Assembly: GCA_036488725.1 (NCBI GenBank)
Contig: DASXHD010000111.1
Span: 16,760-80,759, forward strand
Direction: 5' to 3'
From: Polyangiaceae bacterium
GTDB lineage: Bacteria > Myxococcota_A > Polyangia > Polyangiales > Polyangiaceae
DNA: 64,000 bases
Positions 930 to 57,532 of the stretch are shown one piece after another. A program made the translations under genes and the position numbers. The notes under the pieces are model-generated. The model worked only from the letters and a program-made list of their open reading frames with translations. It searched no databases and was not told the DNA's origin. How positions within the stretch are numbered: the first letter of the stretch is position 1; every line of letters starts with the position of its first letter.

Positions 930-1244
930 CTACTTCGTGTGCGCGGCGCGGCCGGTGTATTTCCACTGGCCGTCTTCGTGCTCCGGCTCCGGGTCGACGC
1001 CCCAGACGACGTCGCCACCGAGCTTGCAGGTTTGGTCCTCGAGCTCGCGCAAGCAGTCGGTCTTCGACGTCGGGCTTTGATCGTCGCAGTGCGACGAGAC
1101 CGGGCCGATGTTTTCGGTGTTCATGCTCGGCGCGTGCTGAAATACTTGTATTGTGCAACCCGTGGGCCGCGACGGCCATTTCGAGCTGCCGGAGCTGCCT
1201 CCGCACGCGACGAGGGCGACGGCGAAGAAGACGAGTTTTTTCAC
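930..1244 (-). CDS. Cys-rich small lipoprotein (hypothetical)
   Basis: Reverse-strand GTG at 1244 gives [21 protein letters not shown], a signal plus lipobox, followed by several Cys. The GTG overlaps the glyQ stop (GTGA), suggesting translational coupling. Confidence 0.5.
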
Positions 1245-2158
1245 GAGACCACCTCTGCGTGCGCCGACGCGCCGGGTTTGAGGAGCGGGAAGCCCATCGC
1301 TTTGCGCTGTTCGAGCCACGCGGTCGCGACGCCGCGCGCGAGGCCGCGGACGCGACCGATGAATCGCGCGCGCTCGGTGACGCCGATCGCGCCGCGCGCG
1401 TCGAGCACGTTGAACTGGTGCGCGGCCTTCGTCACGAAGTCATACGCGGGCAAGACGAGTCGCTTCATCGGATCTTCGGAGAGCGCGAGGAGCCGCTTGC
1501 ACTCTTTTTCGAAATGATCGAACGCGGCGAAGTGCGCTTGGACGTCGGCTTGCTCGAAGTTGTACGTGCTCCACTCCCACTCGGCGCGCTTGTAGATGTC
1601 GCCGTAACGGATGCCGGGCGCGTACATGACGTCGTACATCGTGTCGGCGTCTTGCAAGTACATCGCGATGCGCTCGACGCCGTAGGTGAGCTCGCCGCTC
1701 ACCGGTTTGCAGTCGAAGCCGCCGATTTGTTGGAAGTAGGTGAACTGCGAAATCTCGAGGCCGTCCATCCAAACTTGCCAGCCGAGGCCCCACGCGCCGA
1801 GCGTCGGCGACTCCCAATCGTCTTCGAGAAAACGGAGATCGTGCTCTTCGGCGTTGGTGCCGAGGGCGCGCAGCGACTCGACGTACTGGTCTTGAATGTC
1901 GATGGGTGACGGCTTCAAGATGACTTGGAACTGGTGGTACTGCTGCGAGCGGTTCGGGTTCTCGCCGTAGCGGCCGTCGGTCGGGCGGCGCGAGGGCTCG
2001 ACGTACGCGACGTTCCACGGCTCGGGGCCGAGCGTGCGGAGGAACGTGGCCGGGTTGAACGTGCCCGCGCCGACCTCGGAGTTGTACGGCTGAAGAACGA
2101 GGCAGCCGCGTTTCGCCCAGAAAGCTTGGAGCGCGAGAAGGATGTCTTGGAAGTACAT
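1241..2158 (-). CDS. glyQ: glycine--tRNA ligase alpha subunit
   Basis: 305-aa ORF with near-complete motif identity to GlyQ (LQ.FWA..GC...[72 protein letters not shown]). Confidence 0.95.
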
Positions 2159-2180
2159 CGCGAGAGTGTCGCTATAGCAC

Positions 2181-5100
2181 TCAGGTCCCGAGCTGCGCGA
2201 GGAGCTCGCGGGCGTGCTCGAGCGTGCCGTCTTCGTCGACGGCGCGTTTGAGGAGCATCACGGCTTTTTTGTTGTCGCCTTGGTGCATCGCGATTTCTCC
2301 GAGGCGTTCGTAGGCGACGCCCTTCGAGATCGGCGCGGGCGTGCGGATCATCGTGATCGCGCGGAGCGCGCGCGTCGCGGCCTCGAGCTCGCCCTCGGCA
2401 AGGGCCACGTACGCGAGCTCGGACGCGACGACGCCGCTTTGACCGTCCATGTCGAGGCCGCTCGACAGCATTTGGAGCGCGGCCTTCGGGTTGCCGAGCG
2501 CGTTTTCGAGACGACCGAGTCGCAAGAAGATCGGCGCGAGATCGCGCGAGCGGCGACCCTTGTGCGCCGTAACGACGGCTTGGAGAATTTCGCGCGCTTC
2601 GTCGAAACGCTCCGAGCCGATGAGCGCGTCGGCGAGGAGGCCGGTGCACTCGGCGTCAGCGGGCTTGATCGCGCGCGCTTCTTCGAGCGCGGCGACGGCG
2701 GCCGTCGGATCGTGCTCGAGCAGCGCGGTTCCGGCGGCGACGAGCATGTCGAAGCGTCGCGCGGGATCGCTCGCGGCGCGCGCTTCGGCGAGACGAAGCT
2801 CGGCGAGCTCGCGGTTCGCGCCGATCGCCGCGTAGACCGCCGACAATTTTTCGAGCACGCGCTCGTCGCTCGGCGCAGCCGCGTGCGCCTTCTCGAGGCC
2901 CGCGCGCGCGAAGCCCGGGTTTTGCGCGTTCGTCGACGCGTCCGCGAGCCTGAGCGCCATCTCGACGAGGCGATCGCCTTCTTCGAGCTCGAGCAAGCGC
3001 GCGTACGTGTCGGCCGCGGTGTCGAAGCGGCCGGCGGTCTCTTCGAGTCCCGCCATCGCCGCGAGCGTGTCCTTGTCGGAGTCGTCGTGCGAGAGAAGAA
3101 TTTCGAGCTGCGCGTGCGCTTCATCGGCGCGACCGGCCGCCGAGTGGATCTCGGCGATGCGACGGCGAAGCGGTTTTTGTGCGGGTCGCTCCGCGGCGTC
3201 GGCCGCGCGAACGAGGACCTCGAGCAAGAGCGGCGCACCCGCGGCCGCGTCGGAGGAGGCGACGCGCTCCGCGTCGGCGATGGCCTCGTCGTGCCGGCCG
3301 AGCGCACCGTGCACGCGCGCGCGCGCCGCGAGGACGATCGGATCCGGCCGCGTCTCGAGGAGCGCGCCGAGCTCTTCGGCCGCGCCTTCGTCGCCGAGCT
3401 GCTCGAGCGCCGTCGCGAGCGACGCGAGGACGTCGTGATCGTTCGGAGCGACCGCGTGCGCCGCGCGCATCGCGCGGGCGACGGCCACGGTGTCGCCGAG
3501 CTCGCGGTGGAGCGCTGCCGCGCCGACGAGCTCCTTCTTCGCCGCTTCGCCGCCGAGCGCGCGCGCCGCCGTTTCTTTCAGCGCGGCGAGCTTGCGGCGG
3601 TCGCCGCGATCTTCGTAGAGCGCGACGAGCCTGCTGCGAATCGCGTCGCTCGACGGGCACGCGGCGAGGCCCGCTTCGAGCGCGCGCTCGACGCCCGCGT
3701 CGTCCCATTGCTCGGCGCGCAAGCCCGCGAGCTCGAGCGCGAGATCCGCCGCGGCGTCGCCGTGCTCGGTTTCGAGGAGACGCTCCATCACGTCGGCGCG
3801 ATCCGCGACGTCGCCGCCGGTCGCGGTGAGAAGCCGTTTCATCGCGAGGAGAAGCCCGCGGTTCTTCGCCTCCCAATCGAGGCCGGCGAGATAGAGCGTG
3901 CGCGCGCGCGCTGGGTCCTCCGCTTCGACGAGCGAGCCGAGACGCAGCGAGAGGACCGCGACGCCGGCTGCGTCCTCGCGATCTTTTGCGGCATCGATTT
4001 GGCGTTCGAGGAGCGACGAGAGCTCGCCGGTCTCGCCGCGCGATTCGAGGAGCTCGGCGAGGAGCGCGACGGCCTGCGCGTCGAACGGGTCCTCTTCGAG
4101 GAGCGTGCGGAGCTCGGCGAGGATCTCGTCGACACGCTCGGGCTCGGCCGCGAGGAGACGCGCACGTTCGAGACGAAGCGCTCGTCGCTCGGCTTCGGCC
4201 TCGACCGACGGCAACAGGAGCTCGACGATCTCGAGCAGCGCGGCGGCGTCGCCGGTCGTGCGGAGGAGCTCGAGCAGCGCGCCGCGTGCGGAGACGTCGC
4301 TCGGATTCGCGAGCGCGATCTCGCGACGCGCGCGGAGCTCGTGCGTCACGTCGCCGGCTTGACGCGCGCGCAGCGCGACGCCCTCGCGAATGCGGCGCGC
4401 TTCGTCGGCGCTCGAATGGGCGCCGGCGTCGAGCTCGAGTCCGAGCGCTTCACTCGCCTCGCCGCGCGCGGCGACGAGCGCCGAGAGCTCGAGGAGCGCG
4501 CGACCGAGGATCGCGCCGTTGCCTTCTGCGCGCGCGACCACGCGCCGCAAGAGTGACTCCGCTCGCGCGGCGTCGCCCGACTGAATCGCAGCGCTCGACG
4601 CTTCTCGCAGCACCTCGACGGTCGCGTCCTCGCGATCGGCTTGAAGCATGATCGCGCGCGCCGCGAGATCCGCGCGGCCCGTCGCGCGCGCCGCGCGAAC
4701 GAAGACGTCGAGCATCGCGGAGCTCGTGGCGCCGCGTGTGATGGCCGCGTCGGCGATCGTCGCGGCGCGCTCGGGATCTGCCGCGAAATCGAGCGCGGTC
4801 GCGAGCGCGCGCGCCGCATCGTCGGCCGACTCGGGCCGACGCGCGCGAAGCTCGGCGAGGCGATAGAGAACGTCGGCCGCGCCGCGCGGATCGCGCGACG
4901 TGCTCTCGACCTCGAGCGCGGAGAGCTCCGCGAGGACGGCTTCTTGTTTCGCGTCGTCGCCGAGGCCCGCGTATGCGCGGTCGAGCGCGCGCAGCACTTC
5001 GCCGCGTGCGGCGCCCGTCTCGTTGGCGCGCTCGAGGAGCGCCACCGCGCGAGACGCGCCGCCGTCGACGCGCGACAGCGCTTCGGCAGCGCGCAGCATG

Positions 5101-8100
5101 AGCGAGCAAGCGGCGCGCGCGTCCCCCGCGCCGGCTGCACGATCCGCGAGGCCCGCGATCGCGTCGATGTACGACTCCGGTTTGCCGGTCTTGGTCGCGA
5201 GGGCCATCGCCGCTTCGTGCGCGGGCGCCGAACCCGGCGTCTCGGCGATCGCCTCGAGCTGCGCGCGGAGAGCCGCCGCCATGTCGCCGAGCGCTTCGTG
5301 CGCGCGCGCGAGCTCGCCGAGCACCTCCGCGCGCGCGGTCGCATCCGACGCGCGCGCGAGACGCGCACCGAGCGAGCGCAAGAGGCCGGCGGTGTTTCCC
5401 CGCGTGCGGAGGGCTTTTTCGAGGCGACGCGCTTCGGCGTCGGACGTCGCAGCGGTTTCGAACGCCGACTCGAGGATCTCGCTCGCGCGCTCGCTTTCGC
5501 CGCGCCGCTCGGCCAGCGCGCTGAGCTCGACGAGCACCTCGCTGCGAAGCACCGGCGCGTCGTCGTCCGCGCGGCGAAGCACCGCGAGGAGCGCGCGATA
5601 CGAACGCTCGGCCTTGTCGAGCTGTCCGTCGTCGCGCGCGAGCTCGGCGACCATGCGCAAAATCTCGGGGTTCGCCGGGTCGATGCGCGTCGCGGCCTCG
5701 AGCTCGGCGAGCGCTTGCGCGCGCTCCCCGATGCGGAGGTGCAGCCGCGCGAGATGGAAGTGCACGGTCGCGCGCTCTTTCGGCCGCCGGCCGGCGAACG
5801 AGTCGATCATGTCGCGCAGGAGCGCGCGCGCGTCGTCGGGACGCTTGGCGTCCTGGAGCGCTTCGGCGAGCCGCAGCTTGAGCGGGCGATCGTCGGGCGC
5901 GAGCGCGCACGCTTGCTCGAGCAGCGGCACGGCTTGCTCGGCCTCGGCGCACTTCGTGAGAAAAATCTCCGCGGCCTCGACGAGCAGCGCGCGCCGCTCG
6001 TCGTTCGACTTGGCCTCGGCCGACTGGCGCGCGACGAGCTGAGCGAGCGGCGCCCACTTCTCCGTGCGCCGGTAAATCGCCGCGAGGCGCGAGGCGACCT
6101 CCGGCGGAGAGTCGGCGGCGCCGAGCGCGGCTTCGAGACGCTCCTGCGCGTCGGCGTCGCGCGCCGCGCTGACGTACGCATCGGCGAGACGCACGATGAC
6201 GCGCGCGCGCTGCTCGGGGAACTCGCGCACGAGCCGGTCGAGATGCGAAGCGGCGTCGACCCAATCTTTTTGTTGCTCGTGAATGCGCGCGATGGCGTCG
6301 AGCAGCGGCGCGCGAAGCTCGAGCGCGAGGCTTCGCTTGTAATGCGCGAGCGCCATCGCGAGGTGACCGAGCTTCTCTTCGGCGATGCTCGCGGCGCGCG
6401 CCCAGAGCTCGACGGCCGAGAGCGCGTCGCCTTCTTGCTCGGCGAGCGCGGCCTGCTCGGCGCAGAAACCGGCGAGCTCGTCCCAGCGGCCCGCGCCCTC
6501 GAGCGTCTCGGAGAGGACGAGCGTCGTTCGCGGATGGCGCGGCGCGTCCACCAAGTTCGCGCGCAAGAGCGTCGTCGCTTCGTCGACCCGTCCGAGCTCG
6601 CGTTCGAGGAGAGCGGCGTCGAGCCTGTGAGCGACGCGGTCGTCGGCGCGCTCGGCGACCTCTATCTGCTTGCGGCGAAGCGCGAGGAGATCCTCTTTTC
6701 GTCCGAGCGCCGCGTAGACCTCGCCGAGCCGGCGCGCGGCCTCGTCGTCGCGCGCGTCTTCTTCGAAAAGGCTCGCGTAGAGACGAAGCGCCGCCTGCAT
6801 GTCGCCGACGCGATCGAGCGCGGTTTTGCCCGCTTCGTGCAAGAGCTCGCGCGATCGCTGGCGCGAGAACGGCAAGCGCGCCGAGCTCTCGAGGAGCTCC
6901 ACGATGCGCTCGGCATCGCCTTCTTCGTTGTGGACGCGCAGCAGCTCGGCGAGCGACCACTCGACGTGCTCGCTCGGGTGAACCGACGAACCGACCGAAG
7001 GCGGCGCGTCGTCGAGCGCTTGTGTCGTGCTCGGCGGATGCTCGTCGCCCGCGTTCCATCGCTCGGCCGCGAGCTTCAAGAGACGATCGAGGATCGTCTT
7101 GGCGAGCCCGCGATCGACGACGACGCGCGCTGCGACCTCGGCGGCCTCGCGCAGCAAGTCGGGATCGCCGCCCGTCGCCTGCGACAAGCGCAGCAAGCTG
7201 TCGATGAGCGGACGCCCGCGATGCCGACGCTGGAGCTGCGCGAGCTGCGCGAGCAAACGCGTGTCGGTCGCGTCGTGCGCGAGCGCACGCCCGTACGCGG
7301 TCTCCGCCGCCTCGGCGTCTGCGCGCCTGTCGCGATGCCACGCGGCGAGACGCGCCTCGAGATCGCGCAGCGCCTCCTTGGCCAAGTCGGTGCGCTGACC
7401 GATCGCCGCTTCGAACGCCGCCGTCAGTGCGTCCCACCCTGCGTGCGCCGACGCGGCCTCCTCGAGCGCTTGCATCAAGCCGTCGTCATGACCGCCCGCG
7501 AGCGCCGCACGATCGAGCACGATCTTCGTCGCTGCATCCCAACGCCCGACGCGCGCTGCGACGCGAATCACGGCGAGCGCGGCGGCTTCGTTCGTCGGGT
7601 CGTCGTTCGCGACGCGTGTATGTTGCACGAGCGCGCCGCGCGGATCGTCGAGCCTCGTCTCGAGGAGCGAGCCGAGCGTCGTCCGCAAGCGAATCACGTC
7701 GGCGTCACCCGCGGGGCGAGAGCCTTCGAGCGCTTCGAGCACGACACGATGCGCATCGGCGAGCGCGCGATACGCGTCCGGCGCGCCGGACATCGCCGCG
7801 ACGCCCGCGCGACGCTCGGCGATCGCAGCGACCTCGGACGCTCCTTGCGCCGTCGTGAACGCTTCGCGCGTCGCATGGAACGCTGCCTCCGCGTCGCCCG
7901 CGCGATTTTCGAAGAGGTCGGCGGTCTCGAGCAGGCTCGCGACGCGCTCGGCGTCGTCCGTCGCGAGGCGGAGCCGCTGCGGCAAGAGCGCGACGGTCGC
8001 TGACCAAGAGTCAGTCGCCGCGTGGTCCGCCAAGAGGACGTCGAGCGCGCCGCGCGCCGCCGCCGTGACGTCGAGCAGCGCCGTCAGACCTTGGGCCGCG

Positions 8101-11100
8101 CGCGCATCGCCCGGTTTGGCCTCGAGGCTCTTCGCATAGCTCGCGATCGCCGCGTCGTGCGCGTGGAGCATCGCGCGTTGCACGTCGCCGAGTCGAACGA
8201 GCAAACCGGCCTTCGTCTCCGCGTCGTCGTGGCGCACGGCGGAGCGCTCGAGGAGCTCGGCGAGCTCGGTCCAACGCGCGCGCGCCTCGTAGAGCTCCGC
8301 GAGCGCCGTGTCGACGTCGTCGGCCTCGCCGCTCGCTTTGCGCACCGACTCCCAAACGTCGATCGCTTCGTCGGCCGCGTCGAGATCGCCCGACAAAATG
8401 CGAGCCGCGCGCACTCGGTCCTCACGGGCGGGCTCGGCCTCGCGCGCGCGCGCGCGAACGAGCAGAGACTCGACGAGCGGACGCAAGCGACCCGAAGACG
8501 CGAGCACGTCGACGAGACCGTCGAGCGCTTCGACGTCGGACTCGTCGTCACGGAGGCGCGCCTCCCAGGCGGCGACGCATCGATCCGCTTCACCGATCTC
8601 GCCCGCGAGTCGTGCGGCGGCGCCGAGCGCTTCGCGTCGCGCGGCGGGTTCGTCTTCGAGCGTCGCGAGGCGCTCGAGCACGGACAAACGATCCGCGCGC
8701 CGGTCGGTCTTCGCGAGGAGCCCGTCGAGCCTGCGCGCTGCGGCGAGCATCGACGCGGCCGGCACGTCGAGCGTGAGCACGCGCCCGAGCAAGTCGACCG
8801 CGCGCCCGACGTCGCCGAGCCGCTCGGCGTAGACCGTCGCGGCGCCTTCGAGCAGCGTCGCGCGGAGCTCTTCGCTCTCGCAATCGTCGGCGGCGGCCGC
8901 GAGCACTTCGCCGAGCCGATCGAATCGCCCGGTTTTGTCGGCGAGCCGCGCGAGGCGCTCGCGATGCACGTTCGCGTCGGGGTCGAGCATCACGAGCGAC
9001 ACGGCGTGCTCGAGCGCGGCCGCGTCGTTGCCGAGACGCTCGTGGAGCGCGGCGACCTCGCCGTGGCGGCGGATGCGATCCTTCGCGTTCTTGACCGCCT
9101 CGAGCTCGATCTCGAGCATGCGCGCGAGGTCGGCGTCGCGGTCCATCTCGGCGTAACGCTCGCGGAGGAGCGACGCCGCGCGCTGCCGAACGAGCACGCG
9201 CTTGCTGCGACCCTTGCCGCCCGGCGGCGGCACCGACGCGCGCGGCGGCACCGAGGCGCGCGGCGGCGGAACGCTCTCGTGCGCAGCCGCGACGTGCTCG
9301 CTCACCGGCGACGACGTCGGCGGGAGCGTCTTCTTCATCTCCTCGCCCGTGGGCGCGGCCGCGAGGACGCGCTCGAGCAGCGCGATCACCTCGTCGCCGG
9401 TCTCGCCCTCGTGCATCATCTCTTCGACGACGAGCAGCGCCGAGCCCGCGTCGCCGAGCTCGTCGAGCCAGAGGGTCGCCATGCGAACGCGCAGCGCGTG
9501 CGCCTCTTTCGGCTCTTTTCCGCCGATTTGCGCGCCAAGGAGGCCGATGAGCTCGCGATGTTTTCCGTAGCGCTCGTAGAGGCGCTCGAGCGAAGCGAGC
9601 AGTCGCTCGTTCTTTGGTTTGAACTGCAACAACTGCTCGAGATACGCGATCGCACGCCCGGAGTTCTTGGCGAAGTCTTTCGCGATCTGCGCGGCGTCTT
9701 CGAGGAGCTCGGTGCGACGCGACTCGTCGAGGTCGCCGCCGAGGAGCCGATCGTAGAGCGCGAAGAGATCGTCCCAGCGCTCTTGCGAGTCGTAGAGCAG
9801 CTTGAGCCGGTCGAACGCCCAGCCCGCCGGATCGAGATCCACCATCCGCTCGAGGATGCGAACGACGGCCGCCGCGTCGTCGAACCACTCCTCGTGAAAC
9901 GATACGGCGCGTTGACCGAGCTCGAGCGCGTCCTCGACCGCGATCGGCCGCGTGATGACGCCGTGGTACAAATCGGAGAGCTCTTGCGGTCGATCGAGCG
10001 CGCGCGCGAGCTGCTCGGCGCGATCCCACCAGACGAATTCGGTCGGAAGCTCGGCGAGCGCGCGAAGGAGCACGCCGTACGATTCGTCTTGCGACGACGC
10101 GGTCTCGAGGAGCTGCGCGTGCCACGCGCGACGTCGCTCGATCGGGGCGTCGGTCGCGCCGGAAACGAGCGCGGCGAGGACGCGTTTCTTGCCAGCCGCG
10201 TCGGTGCTCGCGAGCGACGACTCGAGGAGACGCGACGCATCCGCGCCGACCTCGGCGTGCGGCAAGAGCTTCACGAGCATGCGGAGCGCCGCTTCGTCGT
10301 CGGCGCGTCGTTCGAGCGCCGCACGCAGCTCCTTCATCGCCTCGGCCTCGCGCCCGGGGATCGACGAGAGGAGCGACGTGATCTCCGCGCGGAGCTTCGC
10401 CGCGCTCTCTTCGTTCGCAGCTTCCACGCGCGCGCGGAGCGTCGCCAGCGCGCCGTCGACGTCGCCGGCCGCGACCATCAAACGCGCGATTTCGACTGGC
10501 GGCGCGTCGTCGGACGGATCCGCCTCCGCCGCCTGCTTCCACAGGTCGATCGCGCGCGACGCGTCGCCGAGCTTTTCTTCTTCGACGCGCGCGAACCGCG
10601 AGAGCGCCGCCGCACGGCCCGCGCCAGTCTCGCGCGACGCGCGCCACGCGAGGAGCCACCGCCACGCCTCGGCTTCGCGCTCCGCGTCCGACTTCGCGAG
10701 CAGCGCCTCGAGCGCGTCGGCCACGCGAGTCTTGGTCGCGTCGTCGGCGAACGGATCTTCGAGCACCCCGCGGAACGTCTCGCGCGCCTCGCTCGGGTTC
10801 GCTCCGGTCGCCGCGAGCACCTCGGCCTTCGCCGCGACGAGCCGCGCGCGGAGCGTCGGGTCGCTGCCCGCGTCGCCGCCGAGCGCGTTGTCGACCGTGC
10901 GCGTGAAAGAGGGCACCGCGCCCGCCGCGATCGCGAGCTCTCCGAGCCGCGCGAGCGCGACCGCGTCCGACGGAAGCTCGAGGAACGCGCGCGCGACCGC
11001 GTCGAACGCGCCCGGCGCGTCCTCGAGCCGTTTTTCGAGCACGTCGGCGAGCTTGAGGAGCGCGTCCTTGCGCTCGCTCGGCGTCCCGGCCGACTCGACG

Positions 11101-14100
11101 AGCGCCGCATAGAGCTCCGGCAGCGCCGGCCAATCGCCCGCCGTCTCGACGAGCGCCGCGAGCCGCTCGGTCGCGATCCGATCGAACGGTGCCCCGCGAC
11201 GAATGCGCTCGTAGAGCTTTCGCGCGGTCTTCACGTCGCCCATCTCTTCGGCCGCGCGCGCGCCTTCGCGCCATGCATTCGCCGCGGCAGCCGCGTCGCC
11301 GCGCTCGGTGTGGAGCGTCCCGAGCCGCGTGTACCAGAAAACTTTGTCTTCGCCCGTCTCGGCCAAGTCGACACGCTTGCCGGCCGCAACGATCAAAAGC
11401 TCGCTCGCCTCCGCGCGCTCCGCGACCTGCTCGACGAGATCGAGATCGGCGTTGGTCGCGAACGCGTCCTCGGCGAGCGCGCGCGCGTGCACGACGGCGC
11501 GCTCGTGCAAATTGTGGTCGGACGCGACGCGCGCGAGCCGAAGGCGAAGCCCGCGCTCCTCGTCGCCCGGCGGCGTGCGCGGGAGCCGCTGCTCGAGGAG
11601 CGCGCACGCGTCGGCGAACGCGCCCGCGTCGCAGTGAATCTCGTAGAGCGCGTCTTCGGTCGCGTCATCCGGACCTTCGGCGAGGCTCGCGCGGAGCGTG
11701 TCGGCCGCGCCGCCCGCGTCGCCGAGCTCCTTGCGCTGCAAGCTCGCGATCGCGAGGTGCAGGCCCCGCCGCTTTTCGGGCGCGGCCTCGGTCGCGAGCG
11801 CCGCGCGATAGAGCTTCACGCGATCGTGCGGGGTGCCCTGCTCGCGCAAGAGCAAATCGACGCCCGCCATGAGCTCGGGTGACGACGGCGCGTAATCGAG
11901 CGCGCGCTTGTAGGCGTCGAGCGCGCGCGAACGATCGCCGGCGAGCATCGCCGCGTCGCCGAGCCGCTGCGCGATCAGCAAGAGCTCGTCGGTCGACACG
12001 GCGCGATCGCCGAGCGCGAGCGCGAGCACGTCGGCCCGCGCGCCCGCCCCACTTTCGCCGGGCGAGAGCCGGTCGAGCGCCGCGATCCACGCGGCGACCG
12101 GTCGCGCATCTTCGATGGCGTGCTCGAGCGCGGTGCGCACGAGCGAAAGCACGCGGCCGCGCTCGCTCGGCAAATGCTCGGCGAGCGACACCGCGTCCGA
12201 AAGCGCACGCCCGCGCTCGTCGGCGTCGGTCGCGCCTTGCACGCGTGCCAAGAGAACGCGCAACAGCCCCGAGCGCGAGCCTTCCGCGCGAACCATCGGC
12301 TCGAGCACCTCCGCCGCGGCGAGCGCGAGCGACGCGTCTTTCGAGTCGAGGAGCTGCTCGGTCGCCTCGCGCGCGATCGAATCGTGCGGATCGATCGCGA
12401 GCGCATCGCGAAACGCGTCGACTGCGCCGCGCCCATCGCCGAGCCACTGCATCCGCAAGAGCCCGAGCCGCCCGAGCGTCGCGACCTTCTCGCCGCCGTC
12501 CTCGATCTTCGCGAGCGATTCGTACGCAGTCGCCAGCGCCGCGAAATCTCGCTCGAGCTCGAGGAGCGGAACCCACCGCGCGAGCACGTCTTTCGTCGCC
12601 CCGAACTGCTCGACGATTTCGCGCCACGCGCTCGACGCGGCCGCTGCGTCGGTCGACGCCTCGGTGAGCTGCTCGGCCGCGCGCACCAAGAGCGCGCGCC
12701 GCTCTTCGGGCGACGTCGTGTCTTTGGCTTTCGCGTGGAGCACCTCGACGAGGCCGAGCGAATCTCCGAGCGACGAGAGCAGCGGCTCGAGCGCGTCGAG
12801 CGCACGCGCACGCGCCGGCGTGTCGAGGAGACCGCGATACGCCGCGACCGCGCGAGCCGGATCCGCGAGCGCACCCGACGCGAGCTCGGCGAGCTGCTCG
12901 GCCGCCTGCTGACGGCGAACGACGTCCGGCTCGGTCTTCACGATGCGCTCGAGCATCTCGGCGAGCGAGACATGATCTTCGTCCTCGCCATAGAGCCGCG
13001 CGAGCGCGTGCATCGCCGGCAGCACCGCCAAATCCGACGCGCCCGGGACGGTGAGCGCGCTCGAAAACGCCGCGCGCGCCCGCTTCACGTCGCCGGTCGC
13101 GAGGAGGAGCTCGCCCATTTCGGCCGCGAGCCGCGCACGCGACGAAGGATCTTTCGTCAGGCTCACGAGCCGCTGGAGCGTCTTCTGCGCGGCCTCGTGC
13201 TTGCCGAGGGTGCGCGTCAGCGCAACGAACCGATCCAACAAATCGCCGTCGCTCGGATCGATCTGAAGCGCCTGATCCGCCATGTCGTACGCGGCCGCAA
13301 AATCCTCTTCGCGATCGTGCTTGAGCGCGGCGAGCGCACGCAGCGGTCCAAAGCGACGCGCACCGCGCGCGTTCTCGAGCTCGATCGTGTAGTAGCGGCT
13401 CGCGTCCGCCCAGAGCTCCTGCTTCTCCGACGCCGCCGCGAGCGCCGCAGCAGCGCGCGGCGCAGCCGTCTTCACCTCGAGGAGCCGAATGCCGATGCTC
13501 TTGGCGCCCTCGTGCCCAGGCGCCCGCTCGAGCAACCACTCGACGTGCGGCAGCGCGCGCTCGATCTCGCTCGTCTCCTCATAGAGAGCCAGGAGCTTGG
13601 TCCGATGCGCGAAGGCGACGTCGTCCGGCGGCGGCGGATCGCCGGTGAGCGCCTGCTCCAACATTTTTGCCACGTCGCGCGGCCGGCCCGCACGAAGGAG
13701 CGCGTCCTCGAGCTTGGCTCGCGCGTCTTCGTCTTTCGGCTCGACGCGAACGAGCAGCGCGAGCGCGTCCGCGAGGCGCTCGCTCGCGCCCGCTTTCTCG
13801 AACGCCTCGGCAGCCTTTCGCAGCGGCCCGGCCTGCTCGGTGCGCGCGCGGTGCTGCGCGAGCTCGAAATAAAAATCCCCGAGCTTCGAGAATTCCCCGG
13901 ATTGCGTGAGCTTCTCCTCGAAGCGCGCGAGCGAGCTCGCGTGCGTCGGGAGCGCGGCCATCGCGCGGTCCAAGTAACTCTGCGCGCCGACGTCGTCCCC
14001 CATCACGTCGCCGAAAAAAACCGACGACTGGTACATGAACTCGGCGACGACGCCCGCTTGCAACGTGCGCAGCTTGCGATCGCTCGCGAGCCCCTCGAAG

Positions 14101-14300
14101 GCGAACGCGAGCTCGGTGATGCGATCGTCGCGCTTCGCGGCTTGATGCAATTTGTCCCAAGCTTCTTTCGGAAGCTGGTTACGAGCGAGCGCGAGGAGGA
14201 ACGCGCTCAGCACCTCGCCTTCGTTTTCGAGCCGCTCGTCGAGAGCGTCGATGACCGCCGAAACGCCGGCGGTCGGGCGATGTCGAGTCGAGTCGCTCAT
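2181..14300 (-). CDS. giant tetratricopeptide/Sel1-like repeat protein (4039 aa)
   Basis: Single uninterrupted 12,120-nt ORF. Ala/Leu/Glu/Arg-rich helical-repeat signatures (A..Y..L.....P.....A...LG) recur throughout. One Pro-rich low-complexity linker ([36 protein letters not shown]) near the middle. No signal peptide. The ORFs on the opposite strand or in other frames of this region are all R/A-rich junk. Confidence 0.8.
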
Positions 14301-14373: not shown

Positions 14374-15645
14374 TCAGGTCATGCTCGCGTCGGTCCGGTA
14401 CGGACCGGACGTCGGCGAGGCCGGATTGCCGACCGTGCCTGCGCCGCGCGTCGCCACGACCACGCCGATTCCGGTCAGGACGACCGCGAGCATGACGAGC
14501 CCGTTCACGATGGGAATGGCCCCGCTGACGAGAAAGAGGGCGCAGCCGACGAGCAAATGAAGGTGCGGATTGTCGGTCTTGTGCCCGACCAGCGCCTTGC
14601 CGACCGTCGCGAGCACCGCGCAGATCCCCGCGTAGGCGGCGAAGATTCCGCCGAGCAAGAGCACGATCGCGACCGGAATCCCGATGATCGTGATGGCGAT
14701 CACGGCGAGCGCGATGATGCCGACGATGAGCCCGACGAGACCGAGCGCGAACGAGCGCATCGGGCGCGAAGCAGCTTCGATGCGGAGCGCGTTCATCTTT
14801 TTGCCCGCGAGCGCGAACAGCACCGCGCCGAACACGAAGAGCATCGCGGCGCGCGTCGTCGCGTCGCTGACCTCGCGCAAGATGGACCGATGCGACCCCG
14901 AGCTGTCGGAGCCGATGTGAATGTCGTCGCTCTTGTGCGTGGCTCCGCCGATTCGCGAGCCTTTGTGACGATCGAGCGACCCGCCGACCACGCCGACGTC
15001 GCCGTCGACCTGTGCCCCGTCGGCGACGTCGATGGACCCGCCGACCGCGCTCGCGCTCCCGAAGACGTGCGCGCCTTTTTTTACCGCCGCGCTGCCGCCG
15101 AACACGGTGACGTTGCCGGTGACGGTTCCGTGAATCGTGACCGAGCCGCCGAAGACGGTGACGTCGTGCACGGTCTCGTCTGCGCCGACGACGAGATCGC
15201 CGCCGCGGACCAAACGATCTTCGCCGCGGACGCTCGGCGTGGACGCGACCATCGCCGGCGGTGGCGCGCTCGCGGGCGGAGGCGGCGGAGTGCTCGCGCT
15301 CGGAATCGCGGCGGGCTCTTCGGCCGCACGAATCGTGATGAGCGTGCCGTCGCGTTTGGCGACGAAGTCGCCCTCGGCGAGCACGACGTCGAGCACTTTG
15401 TCGGCCGGCTGATCGGTGACGTGCAAGTCGAACGGCTTCCCGTCGTCGACGCCGCGCAGGATGACGCTCCACCCCGCCTCTTTCGCGACGCGCGCGACGG
15501 CCTCCGTGCGCCCGATGTGCGTCGCGTCGAGCGAGATTCGTTTGTCGGCCGGCCAAGTGCCTTCGTGGCGGACCTCGGCGAAGGCAGCGCGCCCGACGAG
15601 CACGGCGAAGGCAAACGCGAACAAGGCGAATACGAAGCGTTTCAT
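14374..15645 (-). CDS. membrane protein with secreted N-terminal domain, bactofilin/DUF4097-like beta-helical Gly-Val repeat region and C-terminal multi-TM domain
   Basis: ATG at 15645 (MKRFVFALFAFAFAVLVGRAAFA signal). Repeats VTVFGGSVTIHGTVTGNVTVFGGSAAVKKGAHVFGSASAVGGSIDVADGAQVDGDVGVVGGS. Four or five hydrophobic helices at the C-terminus. The start ATG overlaps the anti-sigma stop (ATGA). Confidence 0.7.
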   Translation of the reverse strand: MKRFVFALFAFAFAVLVGRAAFAEVRHEGTWPADKRISLDATHIGRTEAVARVAKEAGWSVILRGVDDGKPFDLHVTDQPADKVLDVVLAEGDFVAKRDGTLITIRAAEEPAAIPSASTPPPPPASAPPPAMVASTPSVRGEDRLVRGGDLVVGADETVHDVTVFGGSVTIHGTVTGNVTVFGGSAAVKKGAHVFGSASAVGGSIDVADGAQVDGDVGVVGGSLDRHKGSRIGGATHKSDDIHIGSDSSGSHRSILREVSDATTRAAMLFVFGAVLFALAGKKMNALRIEAASRPMRSFALGLVGLIVGIIALAVIAITIIGIPVAIVLLLGGIFAAYAGICAVLATVGKALVGHKTDNPHLHLLVGCALFLVSGAIPIVNGLVMLAVVLTGIGVVVATRGAGTVGNPASPTSGPYRTDASMT

Positions 15646-16133
15646 GACATGACTCCTGGCGTACGGGACGTGCGCGCCACGGCGAAGCCGATCAGCGCGA
15701 GAGCGAAAGTGGCGACGAGCGAGACGGCGGCCCCGCCGTTGCCCGAGAGACTCTTCGAAGCCGCGACGAACGACATCGCGACGACCGGAAGCGCGTGCGG
15801 CGCGGCGAACGCCCAGGCGAGCGCGCGAGGCGCCGCATCGAGCAGCGCGGGCGCGCCGCAGACGGCTGCGACGACGACCGCCGCGGCGACCATCACCGTC
15901 GGAAACCGATGCGACGCTTTGGACTCGATCGACATCACCTTGGCGACTCTCAACGCGGCGCCGACCTCGTGCGACTCGAGCGCGAGCGCGCCGATTCGAA
16001 GCGTGCATTCTGCACATGATTCGGCGTGCACGCGGGCGACTGGGTCGACGACGTCCTGCGCGTCGGCGATGCACGAGAGCGCGACCTCGCTCAGGTGCTC
16101 GCCGTCCCAGGTCTCGGCTTCGGTCAGCTTCAC
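15642..16133 (-). CDS. zinc-binding (ZAS-type) anti-sigma factor, membrane-anchored
   Basis: HAESCAECTLR motif (HxxxCxxC) near the N-terminus, with a central TM segment. Start overlaps the ECF sigma stop (ATGA). Confidence 0.7.
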   Translation of the reverse strand: MKLTEAETWDGEHLSEVALSCIADAQDVVDPVARVHAESCAECTLRIGALALESHEVGAALRVAKVMSIESKASHRFPTVMVAAAVVVAAVCGAPALLDAAPRALAWAFAAPHALPVVAMSFVAASKSLSGNGGAAVSLVATFALALIGFAVARTSRTPGVMS

Positions 16134-16681
16134 TGTTCGTTCCTTTCAGAGAGCGTCGCGGCGAGCGCCTTCTTGCCGCGCAAAATCCAAGTGGCGACTG
16201 TGCCGACGGGCACGCCGAGCTTCTCGCCGATTTCGACGTACGAGAGCCCCTCGAGAAAAAAGAGCGTGACGGCCTCGCGCTGTTTTTCGGGGAGCGCCGC
16301 CATCGCGGCGTCGAGCTTCGCGAGCTCCTGCATGCGCGCGGTGCGGTCGAACGGCGACGGCTTCGAATCCGGAATCCGATCGGTGACGTCGCGGACCGAC
16401 TCGGCCGCCGGCTCGGGCGCTTGACGCTTGAGCGCGCGCGTTCGGCTGCGCGCCGCGTCGAGCGCCACGTGCTTGACGATGCCGACGATCCATCCGCGAA
16501 CCGGCTCGCCCGGCCGAAGCCGCGCGCGGCCTTCGAGCGCCCGGCGCATCGTCTCGCTGACCGCGTCGTCCACGTCGGGGTGTCCCGGCGCGACGTGCAG
16601 CACCGACGCGGCGACGGCCCGCAAGAGCGGCCGAAGCTCAGCCGCCTCCCGCGAAAATGCCTCCGCCGACACCGCCGTCAT
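16130..16681 (-). CDS. ECF (sigma-70 family, group IV) RNA polymerase sigma factor
   Basis: Region 2 (GWIVGIVKHVALDAARSR) and region 4 helix-turn-helix (EKQREAVTLFFLEGLSYVEIGEKLGVPVGTVATWILRGKKAL). Start placed at the internal ATG (MTAVSAE). Confidence 0.85.
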   Translation of the reverse strand: MTAVSAEAFSREAAELRPLLRAVAASVLHVAPGHPDVDDAVSETMRRALEGRARLRPGEPVRGWIVGIVKHVALDAARSRTRALKRQAPEPAAESVRDVTDRIPDSKPSPFDRTARMQELAKLDAAMAALPEKQREAVTLFFLEGLSYVEIGEKLGVPVGTVATWILRGKKALAATLSERNEQ

Positions 16682-16774
16682 CGACCCGATGTTGCCGCGA
16701 GGCCGCGGCGAAGCAAAGAAGACGGCGCCAAGCATGGGGTTCCCCAGCTCTTCGTCCGAGCCCCCTCTTTAATT

Positions 16775-18028
16775 TCAGGCTGATTTCGCGACCAGCGCTT
16801 CGAGGCGGTCGAGGGCCCGCTCGACGACGTCCATCGACGGGCCGAACGAAAAACGCACGTAATCGCGAAATCGCGACGCGCGCGCGCGGCGCTTGCCCGG
16901 GTTCACGTCGAAGAACTCGCCGGGCACGGTGATGACCTTCGCGTCGAGCGCGGCGCGGAAAAAGCTCGTCCCGTCGGCGAGGCTCGGCGGCAGCGCCGAG
17001 ACGTTGCCCCACACGTAAAACGTCCCGTCGGGCACGCGGTCGACGCGCACGCCGAGCCGTTCGAGCCGCGAGAGCATGCGGTCGCGCTTTTCGCGAAACG
17101 CGCCGTGGATCGCGAGCGTCTCTTTGGTGACGTGCTCCTCGCTCATGAGCGGAATCGCCGCGCGCTGGAGCGGCTTGCTGCCGCCGCCGTCGAGAAACGA
17201 GCCCGCGCTCGTGAGCGCTTCGACGACGCTCTTCGGTCCGAGCGCCCACGTCACGCGCCAGCCGGGGTATCGCCAATTCTTGGTGAGCCCGTCGAAGATG
17301 ACGACGGGATCGCGGTCGACGTCCTCGACATAACGCGCGGCGCTCTCGACCGGCAAAACGCCCGGCTTCGCGCGGTAGACGTAATGCGAATAAAACTCGT
17401 CGAACAAAAGCGAGCAGTCGAGCTCGCGCGCGACGCCGACCCACCGCTGGAGCTCGCCCTCGGCGACCGCTTTGCCCGTCGGGTTGCACGGGTTCGAGAG
17501 CAAAATCGCCGAGAGCCCGCGCCCCATGATTTCGCGGCGCAAATCTTCGTGCGAAAACGCGTAGCCGCGATCGCCGTCGAGCATGATCGGAATCGCGGTG
17601 AACGCGCGAAAGATATCGAGCAGCTCTTCGTACGCCGTGTAGTCGGGCAAAAAATGTCCGAGGTTGATCTGCGCGAGGCTCGCCGCCGCGCGCGTCAGCG
17701 CCATGCGCCCGCCGCCCGAGACGCACACGTTCTCGGCCGAGTACTGCGAGCGGTGCCCGCGCCGATAAAGTGTATTATACAAGTTTGCGATCGCCTCGCG
17801 CAGCTCGGGCAACCCGGCGACCGGCGCGTACTCTTGATCGTCGACTTCGATCGCGACGTGTTCGACGCGCGGCGGAGCTCCGGCGAGCGCGCCCGTCTCC
17901 GGCTGCCCTTGGCCGAGGTTGCACCAATCAGGATTGCTCGCCGAGAAGCCGAGCCGCGTCGCTTCGGTCGTGACGTAAATCACGCCGGTTCGCGGGACCG
18001 CGCGAAACGCCGCGAGGGTGTCGGACAT
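16775..18028 (-). CDS. PLP-dependent aminotransferase, class I/II
   Basis: LSNPCNPTGK motif and overall aminotransferase architecture. ATG at 18028 (MSDTLAAF); the R-rich upstream extension of the ORF is rejected. Confidence 0.8.
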   Translation of the reverse strand: MSDTLAAFRAVPRTGVIYVTTEATRLGFSASNPDWCNLGQGQPETGALAGAPPRVEHVAIEVDDQEYAPVAGLPELREAIANLYNTLYRRGHRSQYSAENVCVSGGGRMALTRAAASLAQINLGHFLPDYTAYEELLDIFRAFTAIPIMLDGDRGYAFSHEDLRREIMGRGLSAILLSNPCNPTGKAVAEGELQRWVGVARELDCSLLFDEFYSHYVYRAKPGVLPVESAARYVEDVDRDPVVIFDGLTKNWRYPGWRVTWALGPKSVVEALTSAGSFLDGGGSKPLQRAAIPLMSEEHVTKETLAIHGAFREKRDRMLSRLERLGVRVDRVPDGTFYVWGNVSALPPSLADGTSFFRAALDAKVITVPGEFFDVNPGKRRARASRFRDYVRFSFGPSMDVVERALDRLEALVAKSA

Positions 18029-18048
18029 GGCCCGCACCCATACCAAAT

Positions 18049-18447
18049 CTACAAGAAGCGCGCGCGAAGCTCGGGCGTCGGCACCATGCAGACCTCTTTT
18101 TTCCCGAACCAGCGGTACCGATTGCGCGCGACGATTCCGTAGACCCAGTCGCGCACGAAGCGCGGAACGATCCACGACGCAGCGAGCAAGCTCCATGGAA
18201 AACGAAGGCCGCGGGCGATGCGCACCGCGGCCGACGATTTTTGGAAAGCGCGCCCGTCTTCGACGAGCACGATGCTGGTCGGGTCACCGCTCGGAATCGC
18301 GATCCCATGCTCGCGCATGAGCTCTTTTCCCGAGTCGGACTGTATCGACGCGAACTTGAAACGCGCGCGCGGGTCCCGTTCGACGATGAACTGCACCGCT
18401 CCACTACAGAGGTTGCAGACACCGTCGAACAGGACGATCGCGCTCAC
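18049..18447 (-). CDS. DCC1-like thiol-disulfide oxidoreductase (DUF393 family)
   Basis: N-terminal MSAIVLFDGVCNLCSGAVQF CxxC motif and length (132 aa) characteristic of the DUF393/DCC family. Confidence 0.7.
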   Translation of the reverse strand: MSAIVLFDGVCNLCSGAVQFIVERDPRARFKFASIQSDSGKELMREHGIAIPSGDPTSIVLVEDGRAFQKSSAAVRIARGLRFPWSLLAASWIVPRFVRDWVYGIVARNRYRWFGKKEVCMVPTPELRARFL

Positions 18448-19950: not shown

Positions 19951-20277
19951 GATTCCTTTCCCGCGCTTTCCGTTGTCGAGCGGGTGCGAGTGCACGGTGT
20001 GTGCCATCCTGCCCGTGGCAACGCCGATGGCTGCGTTGACCGGTTTCCACCTGGTGCGCGCGGTTTTCGTCGAGGCGCGGTTGGGGTGTAACGCTACGTC
20101 GTCACACGCGCGCGACGCGCGAGAATGCCCTCGAACGCTCGCGACGTGTGCGAATCGCGCGCTTCTCGTGGTCGCGCCAACCCCGAGGGGCACGCCGTCG
20201 AGGTCGCGCGGCCCTTCGTAGCTTTTCGCTACGAACGTGGCTGAGGCGCGAGCGGCTGAGGCGTTCCGGACGTGAGC

Positions 20278-30855: not shown

Positions 30856-31016
30856 AAGTACCTCCGTTGTGGTGGTGCGAGTACGCGTCGCAAAAAAATC
30901 CGTTTCGCGTCGATCGAAAAAAGATCGATCCGCGCGCCGTTTCGGCGCGTACGCGCGCCTCCTCTTCGGCGCATCGCGGATTTCCGCGCGGCATGCGCGC
31001 TGCAACGTCACGGCGC

Positions 31017-53406: not shown

Positions 53407-53557
53407 AGTACGCGCATGTACGCGCGTGTGGCTCGCCGAATTGGGATTCGATGATACGCTTCAATGTGACGTTGCCATGACGCGCGCAACGGGTTACTTC
53501 GGCTCGCACCGTGTTGTGGGGGTTTCTACTGCAACCGATTGAAACGAGGACGGCGCC

Positions 53558-56500: not shown

Positions 56501-57532
56501 GCGATCGAGCTCTGCGACATGGCGCGGCGCGATCCGCGCGAGCTCGCGGGCTGGCTCGATGCGCTCGCGACCGGCGTGCGTCTCGTGCGGTCGGCACCCG
56601 AGGCCGAGGACACGTGCGCGCGCGTGATCGCGCGGCTCGACAAAGAGGGCGACCCCGAGCTCCGCGTGCGGACGCGCGTCGCGGCGGCGCGGCTCCTCGT
56701 CGCGCTCCACAAGTTCGACGCGGCGACGCCGCACTTGGCCGAGGCCGAGCGCATCGCGGGCGGGCGCGCCGAATTGATGAAGATCGTTCTCGTCGCTTCG
56801 GCGGAGCTCGCCGGGCGGCGCGGCGATTTCAATCGCTCGCTCGAGCTTCTCACGCGGATGCAAAAGCTGGCGACCGCCGAAGGCGACAAGCAAGAGGAGC
56901 ACAAGATCCTGACGAACCTCGCGCAAGCACACGCGGCGCTCGGCGATCGCGCCGCGGCGATGCAAGCGCTCGAACGCGCCGAGCAGCTCTTGCCGGACGA
57001 CAGCGCGGCGGCGTGCGAACGCCAAAAGCTGCGCGGCCTCGTGCATTTCTTCTTGCGCGATTTTCGGCGCGCCGCGGGCGAGATCGAAAAAGCGATCGAC
57101 GTCGCGCGTTCGCTCGGCCTCACGTACGAGGTCGGCGTCAACTTGCACAACCTCGGCGACGTCTTGATTCGTCTCGACGATTACGCGCGCGCGTACGGCG
57201 CGCTCCAGCAGTCGCTCGCGCTGTGCGACGAGTACGCGTTCGAGCGCCTCGCGACGCACAACCGCATGCTGCTCGCGTATCTCGCCGGGTACAAAGGCGA
57301 TCCCGAGGGCGACAAGCAGCTCGATCAGGGCATCTCGTACGCGGAGGCGAACGAGTTTTGGTGGGACGTCATCAGCGGGCGACTCTTGCGGGCGCTCTTG
57401 CTTCGCCGGCGCGGAAAGCACGAGGAGGCGAAGCACGCGTTCCACGCGCTGAGGGCGCTCGCGAAGACGAACGGGCACCGGATGGTCGTGGATGACTGCG
57501 ACGCGGCGCTGGGGGAATACGCGAAAGAGTGA
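53558..57532 (+). CDS. multidomain Ser/Thr protein kinase with cyclase-homology-like, AAA+/STAND ATPase and TPR regions (1324 aa)
   Basis: N-terminal Hanks kinase (GQGGMAEVF, VIKRIL, HCDVSPQNVLL, DFGIAKA, GKFGYMSPEQ). Central region resembling a class III cyclase-like domain (VTALYIELPRG...AGIHTGRIHV). P-loop GAHGVGKTRLL. C-terminal TPR-like helical repeats. The 1361-aa antisense ORF 53393..57478 is rejected. Confidence 0.85.
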   Translation: MSAAFGRYRLLERLGQGGMAEVFKAKSFGVEGFEKVLVIKRILPELARSQQFVDMFIHEAKLAVRLSHANIVQVFDLGIAPVTDEKGVKLPDAYFMAMEFVHGLDLATLLARCRRQQKAIPVELAVFVCAEVAKGLDHAHRRRDEQLKPLGIVHCDVSPQNVLLSYEGEVKVTDFGIAKARGALEQNMEDTRARQLHGKFGYMSPEQARGEPVDARSDIFSLGVVLYELIAGVNPFSAPTTFETLRRVQACEYPPVELLRPDVAGELVKILKTALAKDPKDRYSDAGRFYESLLAFLYSAGARYSANDLSEFLARFAQREETPSSAAPSLGDAALESETAHAQERTPVEVPPSRTVSGSMARVDTPATSARFVDVERAAGVGERREVTALYIELPRGVETSAVATASQIVERYGGSVVRRENDQLAALFGLGDPDGRDTEVATRSALVALRALTGPAARASAGIHTGRIHVTAVGLPTDDERLGSLIAAARDLARAREGRIAISGTAVRLVKGLFTFEPITQEGGQNLTPLLAGSFVKDVRGANEAFGRFVGRKEELRKIGEVLASATRRQARVLTIRGAHGVGKTRLLVEVERRLNKGNYNVGFYIASCPPRGREYPLSGILSMLQVLCGVGEADPPERIASVQPRLRALGLHDEEVGAVLTALGASVPTYSGSNAKSSLRSALSRMVMSLCEDKPHTFAWDNAHNMDEDSFSILSSAFERLAHARVVFAFTAREGFSHPLEKGSAHVSIDLTDLKSAEDVSRLVALRLGTQTAPDELVRFVRERAGGHPLFVEEIIKGLLDADAVSVAEGRVVAMRLLGQELALPKTLRGLVASRIARLEAMAKTTLQAAAVLGDPIDSAVLARMLNQPLATLEKSLSALKSAELLAHASASELHFTSPIMREVVVDALPQDAARDMHAAAGVALEQELGERSWEQAARIAMHFYESGDRELAATYFAKSGERRLEARQLEAAVRDYARAIELCDMARRDPRELAGWLDALATGVRLVRSAPEAEDTCARVIARLDKEGDPELRVRTRVAAARLLVALHKFDAATPHLAEAERIAGGRAELMKIVLVASAELAGRRGDFNRSLELLTRMQKLATAEGDKQEEHKILTNLAQAHAALGDRAAAMQALERAEQLLPDDSAAACERQKLRGLVHFFLRDFRRAAGEIEKAIDVARSLGLTYEVGVNLHNLGDVLIRLDDYARAYGALQQSLALCDEYAFERLATHNRMLLAYLAGYKGDPEGDKQLDQGISYAEANEFWWDVISGRLLRALLLRRRGKHEEAKHAFHALRALAKTNGHRMVVDDCDAALGEYAKE

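Follow-up and report, generated by a model that had tools for sequence, protein, structure and literature searches.

A giant TPR-like solenoid protein conserved in Polyangiaceae, encoded by one intact gene and possibly a counterpart of the gliding scaffold GltI

An open reading frame (ORF) of more than 12 kb in a bacterial genome raises the questions whether it is a real gene, what kind of protein it could encode and whether its neighbours reveal what that protein does. We analyzed such a frame in a stretch of 64,000 nucleotides from a Polyangiaceae bacterium (assembly GCA_036488725.1, contig DASXHD010000111.1, positions 16,760 to 80,759), which we refer to as the window and whose numbering is used throughout. 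A preliminary description of the window had presented the frame as a single gene for a protein composed of tetratricopeptide repeats (TPR), most likely a giant cytoplasmic scaffold, and had regarded its position within a module containing an extracytoplasmic function (ECF) sigma factor, upstream of glyQ, as a functional clue. The reading which we prefer, and to which we assign a probability of roughly 60%, is that the frame is one functional gene encoding a cytoplasmic TPR-like docking platform which is the Polyangiaceae counterpart, or a close paralogue, of the Myxococcus xanthus protein GltI (AgmK).

According to the ORF list and its translation, the frame at 2181..14300 (-) starts with ATG, has no internal stop codons and specifies 4,039 amino acids (aa). 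The GC content at codon positions 1, 2 and 3 is 0.79, 0.50 and 0.86, respectively, and the third-position value (GC3) lies between 0.81 and 0.93 in each of twenty blocks of 200 codons. As GC3 is uniformly high in every block, the frame is coding along its whole length. On the opposite strand, the long ORFs display the mirrored pattern, with GC1 higher than GC3, as is the case for antisense frames. In the source record HEY1959487 is the single accession gap between the glyQ product (HEY1959486.1) and the protein encoded directly upstream of the giant gene (HEY1959488.1), which suggests that NCBI, too, treats the giant gene as one coding sequence.

The single frame is the conserved state among related loci. 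One genome per GTDB species was scanned using a pattern derived from the central module (see below) of six sequences, which yielded 173 confirmed loci, the best 80 of which were viewed. All of these best 80 are from Polyangiaceae, Polyangiales or 'Myxococcales', with one copy per genome. Homology covers the full length of the protein in 51 related loci, and 44 of these have the gene as a single frame with an ORF of about 3,700-4,150 aa. Intact genes are found in isolates too, encoding 3,701 aa in Polyangium spp., 3,869 aa in Minicystis rosea and 4,045 aa in Chondromyces crocatus. The multi-frame copies among the 51 loci (L001/L008, L002, L009, L046, L047 and L060) come almost all from metagenome-assembled genomes (MAGs) based on nanopore reads. 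The giant gene is also broken in L057, a nanopore MAG. Each broken copy has between one and a few frameshifts or stops, the positions of which differ, and is reported by gene callers as two or three 'genes'. The closest relatives illustrate this: L001 is annotated as proteins of 1,011 and 3,021 aa and L002 as proteins of 965 and 3,045 aa, and in tblastn searches both are collinear with all 4,039 aa, interrupted by one frameshift each, which falls at aa ~954 in L001 and at aa ~865 in L002. Long reads underlie both contigs, and several neighbouring genes in L002 are fragmented as well. Most likely, the split copies in nanopore MAGs represent assembly error and not biology. The condition that the preliminary description had named as a refutation, namely several separate genes in place of the ORF in orthologues, therefore does not apply.

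A profile search (HMMER) with aa 1251-2450 as query, in which representative proteins were counted, identified 2,675 relatives with E values of up to 1e-3, of which 748 reach 1e-30 or lower. Local BLASTP showed that more than 15 representatives of 3,979-4,061 aa are collinear with the giant protein over its entire length, starting at residue 1, with identities of 35-48%; the overall length range of the relatives aligned end to end is 3,880-4,061 aa, also at 35-48% identity. The giant protein has the features of what we call class A: it is end-to-end collinear with proteins of about 3,700-4,150 aa in which a WAFDRLK-type module, at aa ~1,350-1,490, precedes a variable Pro-rich linker. Judged by sequence, it is a member of a large, unnamed and well-conserved family which is present in most Polyangiaceae and has more distant relatives across Myxococcota. 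No Pfam or NCBIfam model exists for this family. The superfamily falls into size classes of about 2,600, 3,480, 3,750 and 4,040 aa. Proteins of about 2,580-2,650 aa (e.g. P0040, P0055 and P0063; loci L088 and L089) are numerous and collinear with aa ~1400-4038; they start exactly at the central module, without the N-terminal arm and mostly without the Pro-rich linker. Another giant TPR family, class D (e.g. P0071, P0074, P0116 and P0118; loci L004, L005 and L007), consists of proteins of 3,725-3,834 aa that are collinear with each other at 25-46% identity. Class D proteins share 22-30% identity with the giant protein, are mostly non-collinear with it and have much stronger canonical TPR scores.

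The giant protein is rich in Ala (20.6%), Leu (14%), Arg (10%) and Glu (9.6%). Pfam searches returned TPR-type matches at aa 330-409, 779-806, 2785-3078, 3412-3444 and 3859-3951, with scores of 118.1 bits for TPR_19 (cut-off 25), 44.5 for TPR_8, 41.4 for TPR_2 and 34.5 for TPR_17, together with weak ARM_TT21 matches. The NCBIfam matches to PrsT, MamA and PilW were all far under the curated cut-offs, and a PDB sequence search found designed consensus TPRs alone (E~1e-5). A hydrophobic period of 17-18.6 residues, corresponding to one helix and a turn, is dominant in 17 of 19 overlapping windows of 400 residues, the two exceptions being the linker-spanning window from aa 1601 and the one from aa 2201. 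Autocorrelation peaks are found at 17, 34-37 and 71 residues.

AlphaFold2 (AF2) models, built with alignments of 15 sequences taken from the protein-search matches, cover 1,031 of the 4,039 residues (aa 1-470 and aa 1395-1955). The first model has a predicted local distance difference test score (pLDDT) of 92.6 and 27 helices, and consists of helical hairpins from residue 13 onwards. The second model (561 residues) has a pLDDT of 88.7 and 30 helices, again all in helical hairpins; its sole disordered stretch is at about aa 1649-1703 (pLDDT below 50 at model residues 280-304), and pLDDT values are 90-97 for aa 1704-1955. Since the helices in the second model often follow a 14-14-12-18 length pattern, they can be grouped into a 71-residue super-repeat of four helices. 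A Foldseek search of the PDB with the 561-residue model returned Ski3, Ctr9, the IFT-A protein TTC21, TTC7B, OGT, Naa15, and half-a-TPR (HAT) proteins of the APC and the spliceosome. Profile matches above the curated threshold and the tandem hairpin solenoid together place the protein in the TPR superfamily.

Neither a signal peptide nor a transmembrane segment was found in the giant protein: the maximum Kyte-Doolittle value in a 19-residue window is 1.42 and the N-terminus is hydrophilic. An exported TPR protein was rejected as an explanation, and from the lack of an export signal we infer a cytoplasmic location. Family matches are to TPR only, and no enzymatic motif was detected. In these respects the preliminary description is borne out: the gene is one intact coding frame of 4,039 codons with uniform periodicity, and its product is TPR-like from end to end, the exceptions being short disordered inserts. 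That the frame encodes a real, single, cytoplasmic TPR-like protein is virtually certain.

A conservation profile of 20 orthologues with a mean identity of about 39% was used to divide the protein into regions. The orthologues align nearly without insertions or deletions over the 4,039 residues, with gaps at aa 1621-1740, 2161-2280 and 2401-2460. Such conservation of length is unusual for a repeat protein and indicates that the repeats are individually constrained and do not form a freely expanding array. Conservation peaks at aa 1441-1620, 2341-2400, 2821-2940 (where the most canonical TPRs are) and 3961-4020. The protein is thereby made up of two arms, N-terminal and C-terminal, between which lie first the conserved central module and then the disordered Pro-rich linker (Table 1). 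The central module is among the most conserved stretches, with 50-56% identity among the 20 orthologues, and a dip in GC content at 9001-10500 falls in its region. It occurs at aa ~1,350-1,490 in all full-length relatives and is exactly where the ~2,600-aa relatives begin. The Pro-rich linker already noted in the preliminary description could be located at aa 1657-1703, the single strongly Pro-rich stretch in the protein; among relatives it varies in length and has a semi-conserved, loose S-[LIVM]-P-P-P motif. In the C-terminal arm the most canonical TPRs are at aa ~2785-3080, and a second variable insert containing Pro is at aa ~2401-2460.

We propose that about 225 helices, or about 110 TPR-like hairpins, often organized in four-helix units of 71 residues, would form an extended solenoid. 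Three short variable inserts would interrupt the repeats, the main one being the disordered Pro-rich linker after the central module. The solenoid, with a predicted length of about 0.1 micrometre, could act as a multivalent docking platform on which a large number of partner proteins, or multiple copies of a single machine, would be kept in a set spatial order. Long TPR/HAT solenoids such as Ski3, Ctr9, IFT139 and OGT work as multi-partner docking platforms. By analogy with these proteins, a scaffold role of some kind is quite likely for the giant protein. The giant cytoplasmic scaffold postulated in the preliminary description is a sensible reading of a TPR solenoid that has neither an export signal nor an enzymatic domain; what had not been considered was the analogy to GltI/AgmK.

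To our knowledge, bacteria rarely have giant TPR solenoids made of a single chain, and GltI/AgmK is the only one that has been studied. GltI (AgmK, MXAN_4863) of M. xanthus is a giant, TPR-rich cytoplasmic protein without signal peptide which occurs in Myxococcales only; it is part of the Agl-Glt focal-adhesion machinery, is required for gliding and has been proposed as a scaffold for several motor complexes (PMC3169522, PMC4508894, PMC11761067). Its length is given as 3,822 or 4,132 aa, and it is predicted to form a helical scaffold of ~1,100 angstrom with multiple docking sites (PMC3169522, PMC4508894, PMC11761067). The gltI gene adjoins glt genes in Myxococcus, Stigmatella, Anaeromyxobacter and Sorangium, and the GltI homologues listed for Sorangium cellulosum So ce56 are encoded by two adjacent genes for proteins of 1,774 and 2,081 aa (supplement of PMC3169522). 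The likeness of the two proteins was judged from this published description (size, composition, export signal and taxon) and not from sequence alignment: at 4,039 aa the giant protein has the size of GltI, is likewise rich in TPRs, lacks a signal peptide and transmembrane segments, and comes from Polyangiaceae, within the same Myxococcales/Myxococcota range.

By their sizes, the two So ce56 proteins would fit a family member of Polyangium or Minicystis size that is split at the linker. A profile search with the central module matched short fragments, with no Myxococcus entry among them; one match is a Sorangium fragment (P0177) that has the central module at 46% identity. Because the sizes of the So ce56 pair fit the two arms, and because the Sorangium fragment has the central module, we infer a link to GltI; that the giant family as such is the Polyangiaceae counterpart of GltI is nevertheless only a tentative assignment. 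It has been reported that the GYF domain of GltJ binds a proline-rich sequence in AglZ (PMC11135422). By analogy, the conserved Pro-rich linker could, speculatively, be a candidate docking site.

Several observations weigh against the connection with GltI. The gltI gene lies beside gltJ, gltH and gltG, whereas the giant gene and all its relatives that were examined have no such neighbours. In the gene order used for this comparison gltJ directly follows gltI, and gltH, gltG, gltF, gltE and gltD are upstream. In the 64-kb window there is no glt gene (gltG with FHA/TonB, gltH, or gltJ with zinc ribbon), no OmpA-like gene and no motility gene. Glt neighbours are also absent from the flanks of L001, L002, L006, L016, L069, L082, L088, L090, L091 and L093, and none was seen at any of the ~90 superfamily loci examined. 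None of 675 flanking ORFs from 88 loci resembles the zinc-ribbon protein GltJ; three of them have an N-terminal CxxC...CxxC motif and encode 93-97 aa, far shorter than GltJ. Class D, with its ~3,750 aa and 22-30% identity to the giant protein, could equally be the GltI lineage. Its three contexts (L004, L005 and L007) contain no glt genes, and neither do those of the ~2,600-aa and ~3,480-aa class members examined. The recurrent neighbours in other clades (DnaJ-like and Hsp70-like genes, or HU) point elsewhere or nowhere. Finally, the one pointer to a putative scaffold function of the giant protein is the likeness of its fold to known scaffolds.

An alternative is a distinct giant scaffold which has nothing to do with gliding, for instance a GltI paralogue that serves as a length ruler or as a platform associated with chaperones or cell architecture. 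Besides the ~90 loci without glt neighbours, this explanation can draw on a DnaJ-domain gene that lies convergently just downstream of the giant gene, about 40-1,500 nt from its stop codon, in ~24 loci (e.g. L016:17943-20750, L021:17915-20651, L049:19236-20246 and L052:1450-4260), with a non-canonical Hsp70-like gene nearby in several of them; the window itself contains none of these genes. The strictly conserved length and nearly indel-free alignment are in line with such a role as well, and the existence of several size classes in the superfamily suggests functional diversification. However, the recurrent neighbours are specific to clades and located on the opposite strand, so that they may reflect shared ancestry only, and no partner domain or motif was identified in the protein. 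The occurrence of one copy per genome (among the best 80 of 173 loci) also argues against a paralogue with a separate task, and so does the fit of the So ce56 GltI homologues to the sizes of the two arms. We consider a scaffold unrelated to gliding unlikely. In a broader form, the family would not be GltI at all but a separate, undescribed class of cytoplasmic ~4,000-residue solenoids of conserved length, the two arms of which are connected by a conserved module and a proline-rich docking linker, and that provides a fixed-length platform or ruler for a cell-architecture or chaperone-linked system of Polyangiaceae, with the ~2,600-aa and ~3,750-aa sisters performing related jobs across Myxococcota; this is doubtful, if worth keeping in mind.

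The genes around the giant gene are listed in Table 1. The giant gene is separated by 73 nt from the gene upstream (14374) and by 22 nt from glyQ (2158), and 4-nt overlaps link the ECF sigma factor gene to the anti-sigma gene and the latter to the DUF8173 gene. No terminator-like site was found in the gaps flanking the giant gene. Because the gaps are short and without such a site, co-transcription is plausible, and from the gene arrangement the giant gene is probably co-transcribed with the ECF sigma/anti-sigma/DUF8173 cassette and glyQ in the source genome and its nearest relatives. The co-directional run, with gaps of at most 73 nt, had been described before, and the gaps and overlaps given there are correct; the DCC1-like and aminotransferase genes between the sigma-54 activator and the ECF sigma factor had been overlooked. 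In the DUF8173 protein a signal peptide was recognised, along with an STN-like domain, a Pro-rich linker, beta-helix repeats of the bactofilin-like GGxVxV type, and several transmembrane segments that form a C-terminal block; as predicted from these features, its beta-helix is probably periplasmic.

Table 1. Coordinates of the giant gene, its regions and the adjacent genes in the window.
Feature	Position	Strand	Basis and remarks
Giant gene	2181..14300	(-)	12.1 kb, 4,039 codons plus stop; predicted cytoplasmic TPR-like alpha-solenoid protein; TPR_19 match, end-to-end relatives
N-terminal arm, aa 1-1394	10119..14300	(-)	AF2 model of aa 1-470; missing from ~2,600-aa relatives
Central 'hallmark' module, aa 1395-1655	9336..10118	(-)	WAFDRLK...ERW..LF.LYDR...LERLYE; conservation profile
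Disordered Pro-rich basic linker, aa 1656-1703	9192..9335	(-)	Proline count; AF2 pLDDT < 50
C-terminal arm, aa 1704-4039	2181..9191	(-)	Best stretches in Pfam/NCBIfam; conservation profile; AF2 model of aa 1704-1955
Sigma-54-dependent response regulator	18463..~19968	(-)	NCBIfam AtoC/NtrC-type, 6e-131, from residue ~113 of the longest ORF; start approximate; L001 orthologue 501 aa
DCC1-like small protein	18049..18447	(-)	Frame plot; L001/L002 orthologue carries PF04134
Class I/II aminotransferase	16775..18052	(-)	Pfam Aminotran_1_2, 4e-34; frame plot; L001 orthologue 425 aa
ECF-type sigma factor	16130..16735	(-)	Pfam Sigma70_r2 and r4_2; NCBIfam sigma70-ECF
Anti-sigma-like membrane protein (HEY1959489.1)	15642..16133	(-)	4-nt overlap with each neighbour
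DUF8173 protein (HEY1959488.1)	14374..15645	(-)	NCBI name 'polymer-forming cytoskeletal protein'; directly upstream of the giant gene
glyQ, glycyl-tRNA synthetase alpha subunit (HEY1959486.1)	1241..2158	(-)	Pfam tRNA-synt_2e, 1e-138; sequence identical to a protein of a Polyangiaceae MAG
Small lipoprotein	930..1244	(-)	Lipobox LVACGG; last gene of the co-directional run, followed by a convergent gene on the + strand

This arrangement could suggest that the giant protein organizes the cytoplasmic side of an envelope-signalling cassette formed by the ECF sigma factor, the anti-sigma factor and the DUF8173 protein. The co-directional genes with their short gaps, 4-nt overlaps and lack of terminator-like sites are in agreement with this idea, and so are the 8-9 closest genomes, the only ones to keep the full arrangement from the sigma-54 activator to glyQ and the lipoprotein gene (central-module identity of at least 63%). 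The ECF cassette is upstream in 9-10 of the 51 fully covered loci; in L017 (55% module identity) the ECF sigma factor and DUF8173 genes are kept upstream without the rest of the arrangement. However, ~40 further intact orthologues have neither the ECF cassette nor glyQ as a neighbour, and these include the isolates Polyangium, Minicystis and Chondromyces. L006, with an overall identity of 48%, likewise lacks the cassette; it has kept glyQ and has Peptidase_M20 upstream, and L023 has kept glyQ without the rest. An esterase gene, the giant gene and HU...SHMT...E2 form the context in Polyangium, Chondromyces and L091. As the other orthologues sit in unrelated contexts, the neighbourhood is clade-specific. 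Moreover, the cassette is a typical self-contained ECF unit, the third gene of which encodes an exported membrane protein. No ECF promoter was recognised ahead of the giant gene, and a search for sigma-54 promoters gave no match there (window-wide, 10 were observed and 12 expected by chance). An ECF-linked signalling scaffold is therefore improbable. The giant gene behaves as a free-standing conserved gene, and the ECF/glyQ neighbourhood is not evidence of a common function; being embedded in an ECF-sigma module, as the preliminary description had put it, does not hold as a functional clue.

Some further observations were made on the neighbouring genes. The element TGGCACACACCGTGCA at 19991-20006 (-) is one mismatch away from the sigma-54 -24/-12 consensus, matches to which occur window-wide at the chance level given above, and lies ~23 nt ahead of where the sigma-54 activator gene probably starts. 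No glyS follows glyQ; in its place is the lipoprotein gene, the start of which overlaps the glyQ stop in a GTGA and which is co-conserved with glyQ in the closest relatives. At three divergent loci (L087/L091:5215-6138, L084:~3362-4186 and L093:6248-7075) an FHA-GGDEF gene is found 3-4 kb upstream of the giant gene. This proximity may be coincidence and is of note only since FHA domains have been predicted to partner GltI in Myxococcus. Elsewhere in the window, an ORF of 708 aa at 30858-32984 (+) has matches to Pfam MVP_shoulder (3.6e-27), Vault_3 and Vault_4 and looks like a bacterial major-vault-protein-like gene. The ORF at 53543-57532 (+) encodes 1,329 aa with a Ser/Thr kinase domain, an AAA_16 (STAND-like) NTPase and C-terminal TPRs, an architecture that is typical of myxobacteria.

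There remains the explanation that the giant ORF is an artefact or pseudogene, either a chance open frame in DNA of 70% G+C, where long spurious ORFs arise and the opposite strand has several ORFs exceeding 1,000 aa, or an assembly-error fusion of several genes, as the annotation of the closest relatives as two genes might suggest; it is refuted for practical purposes by a codon-position GC pattern that is correct along the full frame and mirrored on the antisense strand and by one frame kept over ~4,000 codons in 44 independent genomes, with the L001 and L002 splits being single frameshifts at different sites, the multi-frame copies mostly nanopore assemblies, and the AF2 models of high confidence.

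The giant TPR proteins thus form a large Polyangiaceae family of strictly conserved length and definable architecture that is found in hundreds of species. If the family belongs to the GltI lineage, aa 1441-1620, 2341-2400, 2821-2940 and 3961-4020 would be candidate docking sites in the gliding machinery. If it does not, the protein would be an uncharacterised scaffold of cell scale. For annotation it follows that two-part copies in long-read MAGs most likely result from frameshift errors, and that inferring a function from the proximity of the ECF sigma factor or glyQ would be misleading.

Among known systems, the best structural matches are long eukaryotic TPR/HAT solenoids (Ski3, Ctr9, TTC21B/IFT139, TTC7B, the TPR domain of OGT, and Naa15), with Foldseek E values of 1e-9 to 1e-7. 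These scaffolds are multi-partner docking solenoids that are 3-8 times shorter than the giant protein, and with identities of 10-15% and TM-scores of 0.17-0.29 to the giant segment the comparison does not imply an evolutionary link. The best NCBIfam match is PrsT, the PEP-CTERM TPR lipoprotein (TIGR02917), with 124 bits at aa ~2841-3031; this is below the cut-off of 312 bits and does not make the giant protein a PrsT. PrsT, MamA and PilW are, moreover, exported lipoproteins of 200-900 aa, unlike the giant protein. The giant protein does not represent a new system and belongs among the giant myxobacterial TPR scaffolds, a kind of protein that is already known from GltI.

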